From a virus, in UHGV virus genome UHGV-0008758: DNA of 17,779 nt, one strand, 5' to 3'. Positions 2,275 to 11,852 of this stretch are shown here, one piece after another. The notes below the pieces were generated by a model. It was not told the DNA's origin. It saw only the letters and a program-made list of their open reading frames with translations, and did no database searches. A program made the translations under genes and the position numbers. How positions within the stretch are numbered: the first letter of the stretch is position 1; each line of letters begins with the position of its first letter.

Positions 2275-2739
2275 ATGAAGTTTGTTGCGCCAGAACAGGC
2301 ACCGGAACAGGCGGAAATCATCAGAAATACGCCGTTCTGGCCTGATGTGGACCTGTCGGAGTTTCGCAGTGTCATGCGCACTGACGGCACGGTGACGCAG
2401 CCGCGTTTAAAGCAGGTTGCGCTGTCGGCAATTTCGGAGGTCAACGCAGAGCTGTATGAGTTTCGCAGACGCCAGCAGATGCTGGGGTATACCTCGCTGG
2501 CAGAGGTTCCGGCGGAACAGCTGGACGGCAAAAGTGAGCGCATTCAGCACTATTTCAACGCGGTTTACTGCTGGGCACGCGCCATGCTCAACGAACGTTA
2601 CCAGGACTATGACGCCACGGCATCCGGTGTGAAGCGGGGCGAGGAACTGGCGGAAGCCAGCGGTGATTTATGGCGTGACGCCCGCTGGGCCATCAGCCGG
2701 GTACAGGACGCGCCGCACTGCACAGTGGAGCTTATCTGA
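2275..2739 (+). CDS. L: head completion/stabilization protein GpL
   Basis: The track ORF 2212-2739 is trimmed to ATG 2275 (MKFVAPEQ...), which follows a strong RBS (caggagaaagcagc); about 154 aa versus P2 gpL 169 aa. Confidence 0.8.
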   Translation: MKFVAPEQAPEQAEIIRNTPFWPDVDLSEFRSVMRTDGTVTQPRLKQVALSAISEVNAELYEFRRRQQMLGYTSLAEVPAEQLDGKSERIQHYFNAVYCWARAMLNERYQDYDATASGVKRGEELAEASGDLWRDARWAISRVQDAPHCTVELI

Positions 2740-2942
2740 TGAAAGTGCGTGCGCATCAGTATGACACGGTGGACGCGCTTTGCTGGCGTCATTACGGGCG
2801 CACGCAGGGTGTCACGGAGCAGGTACTGAAGGCAAATCCGGGGCTTGCCGAATATGGCCCCTTTTTACCTCACGGGCTGCAGGTGGAGCTGCCGGACATT
2901 CCGACAACCACCACCGTGCAGACCGTCCAGCTATGGGACTGA
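2739..2942 (+). CDS. X: tail protein X
   Basis: 67-aa ORF, the same length as P2 gpX; ATGA start/stop overlap with L suggests translational coupling. Confidence 0.85.
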   Translation: MKVRAHQYDTVDALCWRHYGRTQGVTEQVLKANPGLAEYGPFLPHGLQVELPDIPTTTTVQTVQLWD

Positions 2943-2945
2943 ATT

Positions 2946-3161
2946 ATGACGCTTGAACGAATCAGCGCCTTTATCACTTACTGCATCGCCGTGCTGCTGG
3001 CATGGCTGGGCGATCTGTCGCTCAAGGATGCGTCAACGGTTGGCGGCGTACTGATTGGTGTGCTGATGCTGGCTATCAACTGGTACTACAAACACCAGTC
3101 TTTCAAATTGTTACGTGGCGGCAAAATTTCGCGGGGGGAATATGAATCCTTCAATCGTTAA
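2946..3161 (+). CDS. holin, two predicted transmembrane helices (class II, possibly pinholin-type)
   Basis: 71 aa with two hydrophobic stretches (ISAFITYCIAVLLAWL and VGGVLIGVLMLAINWYY) and a charged C-tail; immediately precedes and overlaps the endolysin gene. Confidence 0.7.
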   Translation: MTLERISAFITYCIAVLLAWLGDLSLKDASTVGGVLIGVLMLAINWYYKHQSFKLLRGGKISRGEYESFNR

Positions 3162-3651
3162 GCGCTGCCTTGTCGGGGCGGTGCTGGCTATCGCCGCCAC
3201 GCTGCCCGGTTTCCAGTCGCTTCATACCTCCGTTGAGGGGCTGAAACTGATCGCCGATTACGAGGGATGCCGCCTGCAGCCTTATCAGTGCAGCGCGGGC
3301 GTGTGGACCGACGGGATCGGCAATACGTCCGGTGTGGTGCCGGGCAAAACTATCACGGAACGGCAGGCGGCGCAGGGACTTATCACCAATGTGCTGCGCG
3401 TGGAGCGGGCGCTGGAAAAATGTGTGGTGCAGCCGATGCCGCAAAAGGTCTATGACGCGGTGGTGTCGTTTGCTTTCAACGTGGGCACCGGCAACGCCTG
3501 CAGCTCCACGCTGGTTAAGTTGCTGAACCAGCGGCGCTGGGCGGATGCCTGCCATCAGCTGCCGCGCTGGGTGTATGTCAAAGGTGTGTTTAATCAGGGG
3601 CTGGACAACCGCCGCGCGCGGGAAATGGCCTGGTGCTTAAAAGGAGCATAA
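3142..3651 (+). CDS. SAR endolysin, T4-lysozyme fold, P1 Lyz-like (Cys-containing signal-anchor-release domain)
   Basis: From ATG 3142 (G-rich SD at 3133-3138): weakly hydrophobic Ala/Gly-rich N-terminus MNPSIVKRCLVGAVLAIAATL; E41-x8-C50-x5-T56 matches the E-8-D/C-5-T lysozyme triad spacing; extra Cys at 9 and 43; GVWTDGIGNT motif. The track start at 3115 is a GTG with no RBS. Confidence 0.8.
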   Translation: MNPSIVKRCLVGAVLAIAATLPGFQSLHTSVEGLKLIADYEGCRLQPYQCSAGVWTDGIGNTSGVVPGKTITERQAAQGLITNVLRVERALEKCVVQPMPQKVYDAVVSFAFNVGTGNACSSTLVKLLNQRRWADACHQLPRWVYVKGVFNQGLDNRRAREMAWCLKGA

Positions 3652-3655
3652 CGGA

Positions 3656-4033
3656 ATGAAAAAGAAAGTCATGAGTGTTTTTTTCCAGCTGGCATGGGCT
3701 GCGCTGTTGGTTATCAGCCTGCTGTATCCGCGCAGCGGTGCGCCGGTTCTGGTTGGTGCGTCTGTCTGGGTGTCATGCTTCCTCGCCTGGCTGCTTGCTG
3801 CGCTGTGCGCTGTCGGGTGGTTCGCCGGAGATCGGGCACGCGATGAGGTCAGGGCGGCATTGCTGAAATTCAGGGCACACCCTGTAAAACCCGTGCGTAC
3901 ATGGATAATCAGGCTGCTTATTGTTCTGTGCCTGGCGTTTTCGGGATGGGTGATCACCCTGGTGTTTTACCTGCTGACGCTGGTTCTGTATCAGATTGCC
4001 CGCGCGCAGCTTCATGAGCCGATGGCGGCCTGA
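3656..4033 (+). CDS. lysA: LysA-like lysis-accessory membrane protein
   Basis: 125 aa with several hydrophobic helices; positioned between endolysin and spanins as in P2. Confidence 0.65.
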   Translation: MKKKVMSVFFQLAWAALLVISLLYPRSGAPVLVGASVWVSCFLAWLLAALCAVGWFAGDRARDEVRAALLKFRAHPVKPVRTWIIRLLIVLCLAFSGWVITLVFYLLTLVLYQIARAQLHEPMAA

Positions 4034-4485
4034 TGCGTGCGCTGGCGGTAGTGCTGGCGCTGGCACTTGCGGCGCTGGGCTGGCAGTCGTGGCGGCTTAA
4101 CAATGCCAGCAACACCATCGAGACGCAGGGCGCGGCGCTGAAAAGCAAAACGCAGGAGCTGACGAAGAAAAACAGCCAGCTGATTGGCCTGTCCATTCTG
4201 ACCGAAACCAACAGCCGGGCGCAGACGCGACTTTATGCAACAGCGGAGCAGACCACCGCATTGCTGCGAAGCCGCCAGCGCCGGATCGAGGAACTGAAAC
4301 GTGAAAACGAGGATTTGCGCCGCTGGGCTGACACTCCTTTGCCTGCTGACATTATCCGGCTGCGGGAGCGTCCGGCCCTCGCCGGAGGTGCAGCTTACCG
4401 TGAGTGGCTGTCCCAGAGTGACGCAGTGCCGCCTGGAAAGGTCAGCGCCGCGCAGCAACGGCGATCTGAATACGGTGCTGGATGA
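4033..4485 (+). CDS. lysB: i-spanin (Rz-like) LysB
   Basis: 150 aa with an N-terminal TM helix (ALAVVLALALAAL), a charged coiled-coil middle and a Pro-rich C-terminus; ATGA overlap with the LysA stop. Confidence 0.8.
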   Translation: MRALAVVLALALAALGWQSWRLNNASNTIETQGAALKSKTQELTKKNSQLIGLSILTETNSRAQTRLYATAEQTTALLRSRQRRIEELKRENEDLRRWADTPLPADIIRLRERPALAGGAAYREWLSQSDAVPPGKVSAAQQRRSEYGAG

Positions 4486-4591
4486 AACCGAGGCCGCCTG
4501 GGCGGTCTGTGCTGACAAAGTGGACACGATTATTGCGTGTCAGGAGCGAGACAGTGAACAAACCGCAGTCCTTACGCAGCGCCCTGAATAA
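4301..4591 (+). CDS. lysC: o-spanin (Rz1-like) outer-membrane lipoprotein LysC
   Basis: 96 aa in the +1 frame inside and extending past lysB; GTG start with GAGGAA RBS; lipobox LTLSGC placing Cys at about residue 21; Pro-rich mature part; same length as P2 LysC. Confidence 0.75.
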   Translation: MKTRICAAGLTLLCLLTLSGCGSVRPSPEVQLTVSGCPRVTQCRLERSAPRSNGDLNTVLDETEAAWAVCADKVDTIIACQERDSEQTAVLTQRPE

Positions 4592-7322: not shown

Positions 7323-7920
7323 CCTGCTGCCGCCCGGTTCATCGCCGCTTGAGCGCCGACTGGCGCAGACCTGCAGCGGCATTTCCGATCTGCAGGTGCC
7401 GCTGCGCGACTTGTGGAACCCGGCAACGTGTCCGGTCAGCTTTCTGCCGTATCTGGCGTGGGCGTTTTCCGTCGACCGCTGGGACGAAAGCTGGACGGAG
7501 AGCGTCAAGCGCCGGGTGGTGCAGGACGCTTTCTATATCCATCAGCACAAGGGGACAACCAGCGCTGTGCGGCGCGTGGTGGAGCCGTTCGGCTTCCTGA
7601 TCCGCATCATTGAGTGGTGGCAGACCGGCGAAACGCCGGGGACGTTTCGCCTTGATATTGGCGTGCAGGAACAAGGCATCACGGAAGAAACCTATCTGGA
7701 ACTTGAGCGGCTGATCGGTGATGCCAAACCGTGCAGCCGTCACCTGATCGGCATGTCCATCAACCTGCAGACCAGTGGGCCGTATTTTATGGGGGCTGCC
7801 ACTTACACCGGCGAAGAAATCACGATCTACCCGTATATCAACGAAACCATTATTTCCGGCGGCACCGCTTATGAGGGCGGGGCAGTCCATGTTATTGACA
7901 CAATGAGAGTAAATCCATGA
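7315..7920 (+). CDS. I: baseplate protein GpI
   Basis: 201 aa, start overlapping the J 3' end; synteny J-I-H. Confidence 0.85.
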   Translation: MNSLLPPGSSPLERRLAQTCSGISDLQVPLRDLWNPATCPVSFLPYLAWAFSVDRWDESWTESVKRRVVQDAFYIHQHKGTTSAVRRVVEPFGFLIRIIEWWQTGETPGTFRLDIGVQEQGITEETYLELERLIGDAKPCSRHLIGMSINLQTSGPYFMGAATYTGEEITIYPYINETIISGGTAYEGGAVHVIDTMRVNP

Positions 7921-9116
7921 GCGCAAAATTTTACACCCTGCTGACGGAAATCGGGGCGGCGAAACTGGCAAGCGCCGCCGCGCTCGGCATTCCGTTGAAA
8001 ATTACCCAGATGGCGGTGGGCGACGGTGGTGGCGTATTACCAACGCCAAGCGCGCAACAGACCGCGTTAGTTGCTGAAAAACACCGCGCCGCGCTGAATA
8101 TGCTGTATATCGATCCGCAGAACAGCAGCCAGATTATTGCTGAGCAGGTGATCCCCGAAACGGAGGGAGGTTGGTGGATTCGTGAGGTAGGTCTGTTTGA
8201 TGAGACTGGAGCACTGATTGCTGTGGGCAACTGCCCGGAGAGCTACAAACCGCAGCTGGCGGAGGGGAGCGGGCGCACGCAGACCGTGCGCATGGTGTTG
8301 ATTACCAGCAGCACAGATAACATCACCCTGAAAATTGATCCGGCAGTGGTGCTGGCGACCCGTAAATATGTTGATGACAAGGTGCTGGAACTAAAGGTGT
8401 ATGTGGATGACCTGATGGCTAGACACCTTGCAGCTGCAGATCCTCATACGCAGTATGCACCAAAAGCCAGTCCGACATTCACTGGTACGCCAAAAGCACC
8501 AACGGCAGCGGCAGGCAATAATTCCACGCAACTTGCTAATACGGCTTTTGTGCAGGCGGCAATTGCTGCACTGGTGGCATCTTCCCCTGCAGCTCTGGAT
8601 ACACTGAATGAGCTGGCAGCAGCGCTGGGGAACGATCCAAATTTTGCCGCCACCATGACAAATGCGCTTGCCGGAAAGATGGATAAGGCAGCCAATGGGA
8701 CGGACATTGCCGACGTATCAGAATTTCTCAAAAACCTTGGTTTAGGAGATATCAGTGCTACAGGTGTTGCGACAGGTAGTATGGGCGAAACCGGATATGC
8801 CATATTTCCGATGATGATTGGCGGTGCACGTAAGACTTTTATTATGCAATGGGGATTGCTGACGCCTCTGAAATCAGGTGGCTATGTGAATATTAACCTT
8901 CCTGTCGCTTTTCCTACTATGGTGATGCAGGCATATGCAACACATGATAATGCGACACTAAACACACGCCCGACAGTATATGCAATTACTACAACAAGCC
9001 GAACCACTATCACTGCGACGGCGACGTGCTTAGATGCTGGCTCAGTGGGCGCTACAGTGACACGCAGTAGTGACGATACTGCGTGTTACGGTCGTTATTT
9101 TGCAATAGGGTGCTGA
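7917..9116 (+). CDS. H: tail fibre protein GpH: conserved N-terminal region plus the currently expressed variable C-terminal tip
   Basis: 399 aa; N-terminus MSAKFYTLLTEIGAAKLASAA... is typical of P2-type fibres; base composition becomes more AT-rich in the 3' part; an invertase crossover site lies inside at 8725-8750. Confidence 0.85.
   Translation: MSAKFYTLLTEIGAAKLASAAALGIPLKITQMAVGDGGGVLPTPSAQQTALVAEKHRAALNMLYIDPQNSSQIIAEQVIPETEGGWWIREVGLFDETGALIAVGNCPESYKPQLAEGSGRTQTVRMVLITSSTDNITLKIDPAVVLATRKYVDDKVLELKVYVDDLMARHLAAADPHTQYAPKASPTFTGTPKAPTAAAGNNSTQLANTAFVQAAIAALVASSPAALDTLNELAAALGNDPNFAATMTNALAGKMDKAANGTDIADVSEFLKNLGLGDISATGVATGSMGETGYAIFPMMIGGARKTFIMQWGLLTPLKSGGYVNINLPVAFPTMVMQAYATHDNATLNTRPTVYAITTTSRTTITATATCLDAGSVGATVTRSSDDTACYGRYFAIGC
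8725..8750. other. left crossover site of the invertible fibre segment (Hin/Gin/Cin-type 26-bp site)
   Basis: TTCTCAAAAACC TT GGTTTAGGAGAT: two 12-bp half-sites around a 2-bp core with the AAACC-NN-GGTTT centre characteristic of hix/gix/cix sites; lies in H codons for EFLKNLGLGD. Confidence 0.7.
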
Positions 9117-9117
9117 A

Positions 9118-9561
9118 ATGAATCTTAAATATTTTTCTCCATCTGAAAATGCGTTTTATGCCGGGGAGCTTAAAGAAAGCTATATCGCTGCTGGCTCATG
9201 GCCTTCTGATGCCTCGGAGGTTGATGAAAGTCTTTATCTTGAGTTTATCGATGAGCCGCCAGCAGGTAAGTATCGTGGAGTGGATGATGCAGGTATGCCC
9301 TGCTGGCTTGAAATTCCTCCACCCACCGCAGAGGAAATGGCATCGAATGCAGAGAATATGAGACAGCAGCTCATTGATGAGGCAAATGTTTATATAAACA
9401 AACGTCAGTGGCCGGGAAAAGCAGCGATAGGCCGTTTAAAGGCGGATGAACTGGAACGATATAACCTTTGGCTGGATTACCTGGACGCACTGGAACTGGT
9501 TGATACCTCCAGTGCTCCAGATATTGAATGGCCTACGCCTCCGGCAGTTCAGGCCAGATGA
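9118..9561 (+). CDS. G: tail fibre assembly chaperone GpG (Tfa)
   Basis: 147 aa directly after H; C-terminal motif LWLDYLDALELVDTSSAPDIEWPTPP is typical of Tfa proteins. Confidence 0.85.
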   Translation: MNLKYFSPSENAFYAGELKESYIAAGSWPSDASEVDESLYLEFIDEPPAGKYRGVDDAGMPCWLEIPPPTAEEMASNAENMRQQLIDEANVYINKRQWPGKAAIGRLKADELERYNLWLDYLDALELVDTSSAPDIEWPTPPAVQAR

Positions 9562-10135
9562 CATCCGGCGCGGTGCTGGTATCTGTTGCCGTCACCGCGT
9601 CAATGTAATCCAGCACGGCGTTAAGTCGGGTTGTTTCTGCCTGCGTCAACTTCCGTCCAGCCTGTAATTTCAGCTGAATCAGACTAATGGAAACCATTGC
9701 TGCATCAATCAGTGACTGGCGCTGTGCTTCTGCCGCTTCTACTGCGGCGCTATGCTGTGCCTCAGTATCCGTCACCCATTTCTCACCATCCCATTTATCA
9801 TATGGCGTTAACGGGGCGATAGTGGTTGTATTTTCAGGGTAATCACCCGGAGCTGTGATTTCTTTGGCGTCTCCCGTTTCGGTGTTATAGACGATTTCAC
9901 CGCGATGGTCTGACACATATTCCCATGATTTTAAATCCACAGAACGGCAAATTGTATAACCAGCTTTATGTGTAACTGGTGCATCTAAACAAGAATATGC
10001 CGGGATACCGACGCCAACCGCAAGATATTCAGTTGATGTGGAAATATATTCCCGCGTTTCACCATCATAGTTATAAACGGTAATATCCCCTGCCTTTGTA
10101 GCAACAAGTCCACTATTTAATATTGCTTTATCCAT
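9533..10135 (-). CDS. alternative tail fibre assembly chaperone (Tfa')
   Basis: 200 aa on the minus strand; C-terminal motif LNAVLDYIDAVTATDTSTAPDVIWPELP parallels GpG; its 3' end overlaps the G 3' end by 29 bp; its start overlaps the stop of the alternative fibre tip (TAATG). Confidence 0.8.
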   Translation of the reverse strand: MDKAILNSGLVATKAGDITVYNYDGETREYISTSTEYLAVGVGIPAYSCLDAPVTHKAGYTICRSVDLKSWEYVSDHRGEIVYNTETGDAKEITAPGDYPENTTTIAPLTPYDKWDGEKWVTDTEAQHSAAVEAAEAQRQSLIDAAMVSISLIQLKLQAGRKLTQAETTRLNAVLDYIDAVTATDTSTAPDVIWPELPEA

Positions 10136-10623
10136 TATGCTGCTCTCACGATATAGTTAAATGCAATGTTTCTTGGTCTGTTCTCTGAGGCAGTTGGCAC
10201 TACTCTTGAAGCATCAAAATTGACTAAATGAGGATTGTTTGGGGTATTTGGAATGATTGTGGTGTTACCTATCGTATTACGAAGTGCTGATTGACTTACA
10301 AAAACACCACTCGCTGTATTAAAGCTAATAGCCGCATTAGCTTCGGTTTGTCCATTACCAAATGTGCCGGTTATATTACGAATAGCATCCCCCTGAGCAG
10401 ACAGAATTTCGCGCCCCGCGTCAATACCGCGCCCGTCATCCCAACCACGAATAAACTCACCACGTAAATCAGGCAATTTATTTGTCGGATAAGCCTTTGC
10501 CAGTTCCGGGTATTCTTCAGCAGAAAAAACCGCACCGTTGCATTTCAGCCAGCCTGTTGGCGGAGTGGCGGAAGGCCACGGAACAGGGACACCAACAGGT
10601 AATGCAGAGCCTTCTCCCAAACC
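10135..10623 (-). CDS. silent alternative tail-fibre C-terminal cassette (tail-collar-type tip), with no start codon of its own
   Basis: Minus-strand frame encodes GLGEGSALPVGVPVPWPSATPPTGWLKCNGAVF...LPDLRGEFIRGWDDGRGIDAGR, the classic tail-collar motif of Mu/P1-type fibre tips; an in-frame TGA lies just upstream at 10639-10641 and no start or RBS is present; inversion would fuse it in frame to H. Confidence 0.75.
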   Translation of the reverse strand, partial: GLGEGSALPVGVPVPWPSATPPTGWLKCNGAVFSAEEYPELAKAYPTNKLPDLRGEFIRGWDDGRGIDAGREILSAQGDAIRNITGTFGNGQTEANAAISFNTASGVFVSQSALRNTIGNTTIIPNTPNNPHLVNFDASRVVPTASENRPRNIAFNYIVRAA

Positions 10624-10637
10624 AACCTTTGAAAATG
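10612..10637. other. right crossover site of the invertible segment (inner half and core conserved, outer half degenerate)
   Basis: TTCTCCCAAACC AA CCTTTGAAAATG; the inner half and core are the reverse complement of the left site's inner half and core (GGTTTGGGAGAA versus GGTTTAGGAGAT), but the outer half matches poorly. Confidence 0.55.
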
Positions 10638-10659
10638 GTCACCTATATAGGTGACCATT
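10634..10659. repeat. perfect 26-bp palindrome; candidate terminator for the minus-strand orphan gene or a protein-binding site
   Basis: AATGGTCACCTAT|ATAGGTGACCATT is an exact reverse-complement pair; starts 4 nt beyond the stop of ORF 10664-11086; on the minus strand it is followed by TTCAAAGG, a weak U-tract. Confidence 0.45.
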
Positions 10660-10663
10660 CGGG

Positions 10664-11086
10664 TTAATGCAGCGTTGTAGTTGAGCTGGACTCTGCCATT
10701 GCCACTGTCAATTCATCGCCTTCGGCTGAGATCTTAATGGTATTACTTCCTTCTGATTTAGCGCCTTTTGGTAGACCTAGCTGATCATAGATACACAAGA
10801 ATCTTGAATCATTTATAAAGGTGATTTCTGTTACAGTCCCACCTTCAACGACCTTAGAGTCTATTGATTTTATCAAATTGATATCCTGAACATTAATGTG
10901 CTTTATCGCATCCCAGTTAAGGCTGATGTCCACGTTATCCTTTTGCATCGTTATCACATGACCGGCCTTATGCTGGGTTGTGACTTTTCCATCAGGGCTC
11001 ATCGTAATCTTTTGCCCCATGTGATAAATAATTTGAGTTCCGTCTTCGAGACACTCGATTTTTGGCTCTTTAGTAAAGTCGTTCAT
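10664..11086 (-). CDS. hypothetical protein, 140 aa, AT-rich orphan (accessory/moron candidate)
   Basis: Minus-strand ORF with RBS AAGGA about 7 nt upstream of ATG; hand-counted GC about 38% versus about 60% in flanking structural genes; no TM helix or signal peptide seen; no family recognised. Confidence 0.6.
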   Translation of the reverse strand: MNDFTKEPKIECLEDGTQIIYHMGQKITMSPDGKVTTQHKAGHVITMQKDNVDISLNWDAIKHINVQDINLIKSIDSKVVEGGTVTEITFINDSRFLCIYDQLGLPKGAKSEGSNTIKISAEGDELTVAMAESSSTTTLH

Positions 11087-11291
11087 GAAAATCCTTCAAT
11101 TATCTGTTGCTGGAAGGTGCTAATCTACACGAATCCTTGGTTATGTATGTAATGAGGCTCTAGAAATCCACTTGAATATAAATAAATTTTTATGGTGTTG
11201 GCTTGTAATGCTCGCGTAGCTCTTTGTCAAAAGTGAAACTCTGATAACCTGGTTCTACTGACGAACAGAAGGATGAGCAGGAGATCGCTTT

Positions 11292-11852
11292 ATGATTATT
11301 GGGTATGCACGAGTATCAAGTAACCATCAGGACACCGAGCTTCAGATGCAGGCGCTCAGAGCTGCTGGCTGTAAGTTAATTTTTGAGGAAAAGGCTTCTG
11401 GCCGTAAGACGAATCGACCAATCTTGAAGAAAGTGGTTGAGATGCTTGAACCCGGTGACGAACTGGTCATCTGGAAGTTAGATCGTATCGGTCGCAATGT
11501 ACTGCACGCATTATTGACCTTTCAGAGCCTCGCAGAACGCAATGTTAATATTCGTTCTATTACAGATGGCGTTGACCTGAGCACTGCCAGTGGGCGCTAT
11601 AACTTCCGTAATATTCTCTCTGCGGCACAATATGAGTCTGATCTGAATAGTGAACGCACTCTGGCAGGGTTAGCGGTTGCCCGCGCTAAGGGGAGGATTG
11701 GCGGACGTAAGCCTAAGTATACTGATGAGCACTGGGATGCGTTTGAACGGGAAATTAAGTCCGGCTGCTCACATCGTGATATAGCTCTCAAATATGGGGT
11801 CGGCCTGTCGACTCTCTACAAACGTTATCCGGCTCAGCAAGAGCATCACTAA
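11292..11852 (+). CDS. serine recombinase, DNA invertase (Hin/Gin/Cin/Pin family)
   Basis: 186 aa; N-terminal [13 protein letters not shown] with the catalytic Ser in YARVSS; [11 protein letters not shown]; C-terminal HTH region GRIGGRKPK...[12 protein letters not shown]; AGGAG RBS. Confidence 0.9.

Follow-up and report, generated by a model that had tools for sequence, protein, structure and literature searches.

A predicted P1 Lyz-type signal-anchor-release endolysin and a class II holin in the lysis module of a P2-like prophage

How a phage lysozyme is held inactive until lysis, and what kind of holin sets it free, is the question raised by two overlapping genes of UHGV virus genome UHGV-0008758. 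The stretch of DNA analysed here, referred to as the window, comprises 17,779 nucleotides (nt) of this genome, and domain and profile searches identified it as the late-gene region of a P2-like (Peduoviridae) prophage. The original prediction, made from the sequence without database searches, had proposed a signal-anchor-release (SAR) endolysin resembling Lyz of phage P1, with three cysteines in a characteristic arrangement, preceded by a holin of 71 amino acids (aa) with two transmembrane (TM) helices. Our analysis indicates that the cassette serves for lysis in a P2-like (Peduoviridae) prophage of the Fels-2/SopEPhi type and that its lysozyme is a SAR enzyme of the P1 Lyz subclass, a reading to which we assign a probability of about 0.78.

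The lysozyme gene was read from the ATG at 3142 to the stop at 3651, giving a protein of 169 aa with the N-terminus MNPSIVKRCLVGAVLAIAATLPGF. A mechanical list of open reading frames (ORFs) places its start further upstream, at GTG 3115; ATG 3142 is the predicted start because it is conserved in 76 related loci and in database clusters of 169-171-aa proteins. Reading of the codons gave Cys9 (TGC, 3166-3168), Glu41 (GAG, 3262-3264), Cys43 (TGC, 3268-3270), Cys50 (TGC, 3289-3291), and Thr56 (ACC, 3307-3309), and every residue of the proposed E41-x8-C50-x5-T56 arrangement, including the additional Cys43, was found at the position originally given for it. The protein matched the Pfam family Phage_lysozyme (PF00959) with 140.1 bits against a cut-off of 22.3 (E = 6.3e-41), and the same three residues supply the GH24 triad Glu-8X-Asp/Cys-5X-Thr. 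Seven cysteines are present in total, at positions 9, 43, 50, 94, 120, 137, and 165.

The lysozyme contains only one hydrophobic stretch, the core of which comprises 13 residues and is rich in Ala, Gly, and Thr. Ala, Gly, Ser, and Thr account for 42% of the best 19 consecutive residues of the N-terminal segment, so that an Ala/Gly-rich, weakly hydrophobic N-terminus containing Cys9, as had been proposed, was confirmed by both composition and codon reading. The segment is uncharged and follows a basic n-region (K7 R8), as is expected of a SAR segment. Hessa and Kyte-Doolittle sums, which are crude measures, failed to distinguish the presumed SAR segment from the spanin's stable anchor, and only composition and length were used. 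Cys9 was also considered as a lipoprotein cysteine, and this was rejected since V-K-R-C is not a lipobox.

Sequence and structure searches both led to P1 Lyz. It was the best sequence match in the PDB (1XJT, E = 3.9e-27; 1XJU, E = 1.2e-25), and the best Foldseek match of the predicted fold was 1XJT, the active form, with a TM-score of 0.77, followed by a value of 0.60 for 1XJU, the secreted inactive form. In the alignment with the P1 Lyz sequence taken from GenBank AF125376, E42, C44, C51, and T57 of P1 Lyz matched E41, C43, C50, and T56 of the window lysozyme residue for residue. Both proteins have the GH24 fold and seven cysteines, of which the C-terminal pair (137 and 165) is aligned, and both carry a cysteine in an uncharged hydrophobic N-terminal segment after a basic n-region. 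Cys13 of P1 Lyz reportedly attacks the Cys44-Cys51 bond (Xu et al. 2005). Three sequence features of the Lyz(P1) subclass were found in the window enzyme: a catalytic Cys replaces Asp, a partner Cys lies two residues past the catalytic Glu, and a further Cys lies in the SAR segment. The proposed three-cysteine likeness to P1 Lyz was thus upheld by alignment, exactly for the E/C/C/T residues and with a displacement of Cys9 that is weighed below. The overall identity is only 37%, an 11-residue insertion after FNMGC in P1 Lyz is not present in the window lysozyme, and two other cysteines are placed differently.

Another subclass, Lyz103, reportedly described by Kuty et al. 2010, is said to keep the catalytic Asp and to have two cysteines flanking the catalytic Glu, which is caged by a disulfide. 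Assignment of the window lysozyme to this subclass was rejected, since position 50 is Cys, not Asp, and the residue before E41 is Tyr, Phe, or Leu and never Cys. The mechanism of P1 Lyz and the triad E-8X-C/D-5X-T have been described (PMC3556154). In general, SAR endolysins are exported by Sec, remain tethered by an uncleaved N-terminal TM segment, and refold upon release, which is speeded when the holin dissipates the membrane potential (PMC6116005, PMC9025707).

Comparison of homologues revealed strong conservation of Cys9. The K/R-R-C motif was kept in all 54 full-length homologues of 80-99% identity, whereas the hydrophobic core was variable. A holin-profile pattern scan of 185,579 species genomes yielded 79 distinct loci. 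The identity of their holins goes down to 35%, and the genera represented include Citrobacter, Pantoea, Rahnella, Serratia, Ewingella, and Pectobacterium. A word-indexed search for holin homologues, by contrast, retrieved close relatives only. Wherever the gene downstream of the holin is intact (76/76 loci), it shares 20 or 17 nt with the end of the holin gene, and its product is a lysozyme in which [KR]-[KRN]-C and a hydrophobic stretch are accompanied by EGC-x6-C-x5-T and by a Pro22 that never varies. Among these 76 distinct lysozymes E41, C43, C50, and T56 were invariant, all seven cysteines were conserved (C165 being gapped in one), and R8 was invariant or nearly so, while positions 10 (S/A/L/T/V/N), 12 (A/G), 13 (A/V), 17, and 20 (T/L/A) varied. 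At the level of sequence, the invariance of Cys9 within a membrane segment that otherwise varies points to a specific role of this residue.

A broader comparison covered 126 representatives of 50%-identity clusters that include the catalytic segment. An N-terminal TM segment together with C43/C50 was present in 30 of them, and 28 of these 30 have an N-terminal Cys; the starts of the two exceptions fall within the hydrophobic stretch and are probably misplaced. The N-terminal Cys was found in none of the four representatives in which a TM segment is combined with Asp at position 50.

Several observations weigh against assignment to the P1 Lyz subclass. Cys9 lies three alignment columns, or approximately one helical turn, N-terminal of P1 Cys13 and directly after K-R, and the HMMER alignment placed L15 of the window lysozyme opposite P1 C13. 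The hydrophobic core spans 13-16 residues, compared with approximately 20 in the SAR segments of P1 Lyz and of R21 from phage 21, which is a length resembling the h-region of a signal peptide, and the segment is less Gly-rich than that of P1 Lyz. The C43/C50 pair occurred without any TM segment in approximately 30 of the 126 representatives and is not itself a regulatory signature; therefore, the pair appears to be the more ancient trait in this GH24 branch, whose regulated form is marked by the SAR Cys. The AlphaFold2 model of the lysozyme, which was built with 55 close homologues and used only for the overall fold match, had a mean predicted local distance difference test (pLDDT) score of 74.6, with values below 50 at residues 1-10 and 41-65 and of 85-96 in the remaining domain. 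All three cysteines (9, 43, and 50) lie in these unreliable parts of the model. The low values over E41-T56 and the next loop (3262-3336) may reflect a shallow alignment or the two alternative conformations of P1 Lyz. Moreover, no experiment on this lysozyme was found, and export, release, and disulfide swap are all inferred by homology.

These points bear on three rival explanations of how the enzyme is controlled. Activation as in R of phage 21, for which release and refolding suffice and the cysteines are structural or catalytic without any disulfide isomerization, would accommodate the presence of C43/C50 in soluble homologues, where periplasmic disulfide control is impossible, and both R21 and DLP12 RrrD were also significant structural relatives. 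Such activation is nevertheless improbable, since the closest relative is P1 Lyz and not R21, the catalytic residue is Cys rather than Asp as in P1 Lyz, Cys9 does not share the variability of the segment around it, and the N-terminal Cys accompanies C43/C50, not Asp50, in the TM-bearing representatives. The most serious formal alternative, although a very unlikely one, is that the N-terminus is a cleavable Sec signal peptide and that the product is a soluble periplasmic lysozyme controlled otherwise. The short core and the positive n-region are typical of such peptides, and RI of phage T4, long presumed to have a SAR segment, proved to be cleaved (PMC8385771). Against this, no conserved signal-peptidase -3/-1 site was found across the 76 lysozymes, where each candidate -1 position is taken by M, L, Q, D, or N in a considerable share of the sequences (A18 is replaced by M in 10/76, T20 by L in 31/76, and G23 by Q/D/N in 34/76) and P22 is invariant. 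Cleavage would discard Cys9 and leave its invariance unexplained, and removal by signal peptidase is therefore disfavoured; the homologous SAR domains of P1 and phage 21 were not efficiently cleaved in experiments (PMC8385771). Finally, it is barely credible that the real start lies downstream, at a GTG giving the 158-aa product annotated in the Fels-2 RefSeq record, and that a cytoplasmic enzyme awaits a large-hole holin in the manner of P2. Hundreds of protein clusters share the 169-171-aa form with MNPSIVKRC, which is also the one annotated in MLG42 and most records, the distance from its ATG to the holin stop is fixed, and the shorter product would still open with a hydrophobic stretch.

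For a SAR endolysin of the P1 Lyz subclass, the following course of activation can be proposed. The 71-aa class II holin would build up in the inner membrane during late expression, while the lysozyme would be exported by Sec and tethered by its uncleaved, weakly hydrophobic N-terminal segment (residues ~9-24). The periplasmic domain would be inactive, with Cys50 locked in a disulfide with Cys43 and Cys9 shielded in the bilayer near its cytoplasmic face. The N-terminal segment would exit the bilayer once the holin has triggered and the membrane potential is lost, and the thiol of Cys9 could then attack the C43-C50 bond and form C9-C43, by which Cys50 would be freed and the E41/C50/T56 active site completed. 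In either state, the seven invariant cysteines would make three disulfides and one free thiol. The LysB/LysC spanin would disrupt the outer membrane, and the LysA-like protein encoded next to the lysozyme would probably tune the timing.

The hydrophobicity scan of the holin showed two hydrophobic segments, at approximately residues 6-22 (nt 2961-3011) and 32-48 (nt 3039-3089), with a short acidic loop between them and a strongly basic, highly charged C-terminus. The predicted topology is N-in/C-in, that is, class II, in agreement with the two-helix holin originally proposed. The protein matched the Pfam family Phage_holin_2_3 (PF16080; HP1 holin family) with 36.6 bits against a cut-off of 28.8 (E = 4.6e-9) and PHROG 20, annotated as 'holin' (E = 3e-26); the score for PF04971 (P21 holin S) was 20.4 bits, under the cut-off of 26 (E = 5e-4). 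No dual-start motif was found in the holin, as the upstream in-frame codons are ATT and then the TGA stop of gpX.

Whether this holin makes small or large holes was considered by comparison with the pinholin of phage 21. A profile of 20 holin-family sequences was aligned with S21-68, for which the sequence used agreed at 100% identity with the S gene of phage SfI, and hhalign returned a probability of 86.9% (E = 4e-6) over 47 columns spanning both TM helices. In addition, in HP1 and at each of the 76 loci whose downstream gene is intact, the holin was paired with a SAR-type lysozyme and never with a soluble one, although this may only reflect linkage within P2-like prophages. The remote relationship to S21, with the sub-threshold PF04971 matches, bears out the compatibility with a pinholin partner that had been suggested, and compatibility only; the sequence cannot decide hole size, and we put the chance that the holin is a pinholin at somewhat better than even. 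A canonical class II holin forming large holes, with the SAR endolysin activated by depolarization whatever the hole size, has an appreciable but less than even chance. It agrees with the first TM domain (TMD1) of the window holin, which has no counterpart of the 6-residue Gly/Ser/Ala-rich insert in TMD1 of S21. Serratia NucE, a putative homologue of the window holin to which the database name 'secretory protein' on many cluster members points, was reportedly able to substitute for lambda S (Berkmen et al. 1997), which would mean large holes. P1 Lyz works with LydA and LydC, which are canonical holins, and also with the pinholin LydD (PMC9025707), and canonical holins may likewise be encoded by phages that export their endolysins (PMC6116005).

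A more far-reaching proposal, which we regard as doubtful, is that the HP1/NucE-family holins represent a second, trimmed pinholin lineage that is homologous to S21 and lacks the TMD1 insert. They would form an obligate pair with Lyz(P1)-type SAR endolysins across P2-like phages from Haemophilus to Enterobacterales, and the LysA-like protein would be a separately encoded antiholin. No hole-size test of any member of the HP1/NucE family was found in the searched literature.

Some further holins of the scan deserve mention in their own right. Distant holins in Serratia, Rahnella, and Ewingella (loci L054-L083) start with M-G-L-x-M/T-E-[KR], and in some of them (L075 and L078; MGLKMEK...) Met1 and Met5 flank a Lys, resembling the dual-start holin/antiholin motif of lambda and phage 21. 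Homologues of 80% and 39% identity were located on tiny contigs, one of 3.2 kb from a metagenome-assembled genome of 'Bacillota bacterium' (L015) and one of 654 bp from Asticcacaulis sp. (L052), and are probably due to contamination or mis-binning. Another copy lies on a very large replicon, a Klebsiella 'plasmid' of 774 kb (L014).

The positions of the lysis genes and their features are given in Table 1. From left to right, the capsid gene N, terminase gene M, head completion gene L, and tail gene X precede the lysis genes, and the tail completion genes R and S followed by baseplate, tail fibre, sheath, tube, and tape-measure genes lie downstream.

Table 1. Coordinates of the lysis genes, the adjoining tail gene, and the segments discussed in the text.
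Feature	Position (nt)	Strand	Basis or remark
gpX, tail X	2739-2942		PF05489
Holin, 71 aa, predicted class II	2946-3161	+	PF16080, PHROG 20
Probable SAR-type GH24 endolysin, 169 aa, P1 Lyz subclass	3142-3651	+	PF00959, 1XJT match
Overlap of holin 3' end and endolysin start, 20 nt	3142-3161	+	Separate reading frames
Predicted SAR segment, C9-F24	3166-3213	+	CLVGAVLAIAATLPGF; K7 R8 immediately before
Catalytic segment, E41-G-C43-x6-C50-x5-T56	3262-3309	+	Alignment to P1 Lyz
LysA-like integral membrane protein, 125 aa, 3-4 hydrophobic helices	3656-4033	+	PHROG 162, E = 2e-41
LysB, i-spanin (Rz equivalent), 150 aa, N-terminal TM helix	4033-4485	+	PHROG 89 'Rz-like spanin', E = 9.5e-45
LysC, o-spanin (Rz1 equivalent), lipobox LSGC, frame other than that of LysB	4301-4591	+	PF23793, E = 1.6e-13; PHROG 952, E = 2.7e-30

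The LysA-like protein, for which the local Pfam copy gave no match, is annotated as 'antiholin; P2 LysA-like' in phage MLG42 and is presumed to modulate the timing of lysis. A published listing of overlapped i-spanins includes the LysB homologue of Fels-2 (PMC6139136). Over its full length of 1951 nt, the lysis region showed 97% DNA identity to Yersinia phage vB_YpM_MLG42 and 96.2% to Salmonella phage SEN8, with the same genes in the same order. The identity to Fels-2 and SopEPhi was approximately 96% over approximately 81% of the region, and many Klebsiella and Escherichia P2-like phages showed 86-88%. The lysozyme protein is 100% identical to that of MLG42 and falls in very large database clusters of Enterobacterales prophage lysozymes; the family is spread over hundreds of clusters at 90% identity, and some of these contain more than 1000 sequences.

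The comparison of related loci yielded several observations on annotation. In the Fels-2 record (NC_010463; coordinates of our locus L002), the coding sequence is annotated at 976-1452 from an internal GTG (158 aa), whereas a conserved 169-aa frame is open at 943-1452. The short annotation drops MNPSIVKRCLV, including the conserved SAR Cys, and is almost certainly a mis-start. Gene content is swapped at the LysA-like slot (3656-4033 in the window; 1457-1832 in L002). In the window, MLG42, and SEN8 it is filled by the 125-aa multi-TM protein of PHROG 162, to which PHROGs wrongly gives the label 'endolysin', in Fels-2 and SopEPhi by two small, unrelated TM ORFs of 77 and 49 aa, and in several Klebsiella and Yersinia relatives LysB follows the lysozyme directly with no gene between. 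Frameshifts or deletions have given rise to fusions in many database entries (P0041; P0057, 296 aa; P0004, 235 aa; P0086, 288 aa). They join the lysozyme with the LysA-like protein (dozens of clusters, some in complete genomes), the holin with the lysozyme, or the lysozyme with a gpD-like tail protein, and look like decaying prophages or assembly errors, not designed fusions.

Two further loci were also noted. At 7917-11852 of the window, the tail-fibre gene H and an assembly gene are followed on the opposite strand by a second tail-fibre C-terminal segment with its own assembly gene, after which a serine recombinase (Resolvase + HTH_7) is encoded at 11292-11852; the region resembles a Gin/Cin/Hin-type invertible segment for host range. 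In Serratia marcescens MSU97 (L068, 2147-4452), tail-completion and baseplate genes come immediately after tail X, the holin, and the SAR lysozyme, no LysB/LysC spanin lies after the lysozyme, and a repressor-like gene lies upstream, so the locus is possibly a tailocin or a degenerate prophage. Its interpretation as a nucE-nucD-nucC locus was rejected, as holin and lysozyme run straight into tail genes.

A Lyz(P1)-type SAR endolysin with a class II holin is an established kind of lysis module and is already known, the identical protein being present in public phage genomes. The Fels-2 record already states 'sequence similarity to Lyz [phage P1]' for the lysozyme and '2 transmembrane domains; putative holin' for the holin. 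The same cassette was described in 2023 in Klebsiella phage KP12, in which tail X, a 216-nt 'possible secretory protein' gene (PHROG 20), and a 513-nt lysozyme gene (PHROG 7) with a 20-nt overlap are followed by a 378-nt membrane protein gene (PHROG 162), LysB, and LysC; its authors noted that the P1 Lyz SAR domain is conserved and searched for a pinholin partner (PMC9902359). Beyond correct annotation, the present cassette thus has little significance, as this pairing is of a textbook type and widespread in Enterobacterales prophages. What the comparison offers is an argument for functional constraint on the SAR Cys, with seven invariant cysteines set against a variable hydrophobic core, and a holin family that is a candidate for pinholins. 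It also indicates that late gene starts in some reference records, such as that of Fels-2, remove the regulatory cysteine.

Compared with known systems, the cassette occupies the same late-operon position as the Y, K, lysA, lysB, and lysC genes of P2, between gpX and gpR/gpS, and has equivalents of LysA, LysB, and LysC, the latter two overlapped. The holin (HP1 family) and the endolysin (GH24), however, are non-homologous replacements of P2 Y and K. The K protein of P2 is lambda-R-like, that is, a cytoplasmic endolysin (PMC6139136), and no P2 record was found among the 66 phage records carrying a holin of the window type, so the difference from P2 to which the original prediction had drawn attention is real, but it is an ordinary module exchange. 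In Haemophilus phage HP1, as in the window, a small holin gene lies directly upstream of the lysozyme gene, and HP1 Lys likewise has a hydrophobic N-terminus with a cysteine (Cys11) and EGC-x6-C-x5-T, but retains a P1-like insertion. HP1 Hol is the name-giver of the Pfam family matched by the window holin, and the direct hhalign match between the two was weak (15%).

With phage 21, the window shares a holin of two TM helices, its 71 aa being the length of S21-71, and a GH24 SAR-type endolysin, R21 (3HDE, E = 1.9e-17), which is a relative but not the closest one. The window holin differs from S21 in having neither the dual-start motif nor the TMD1 insert and in scoring below the cut-off of the P21-holin Pfam family. 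In R21 the catalytic residue is Asp, and refolding, not a disulfide swap, controls the enzyme, whereas the window enzyme has Cys50 at this position, where the family triad allows Cys or Asp. In P1, lyz is unlinked to lydA/lydB, whereas the window gene lies inside a holin-endolysin-LysA-spanin cassette. Cassettes of the same kind as that of the window are found in RE-2010 and in Klebsiella and Escherichia P2-like phages, including KP12, and those of Fels-2 and SopEPhi show no meaningful difference from it apart from the two small ORFs in place of the 125-aa LysA-like gene.

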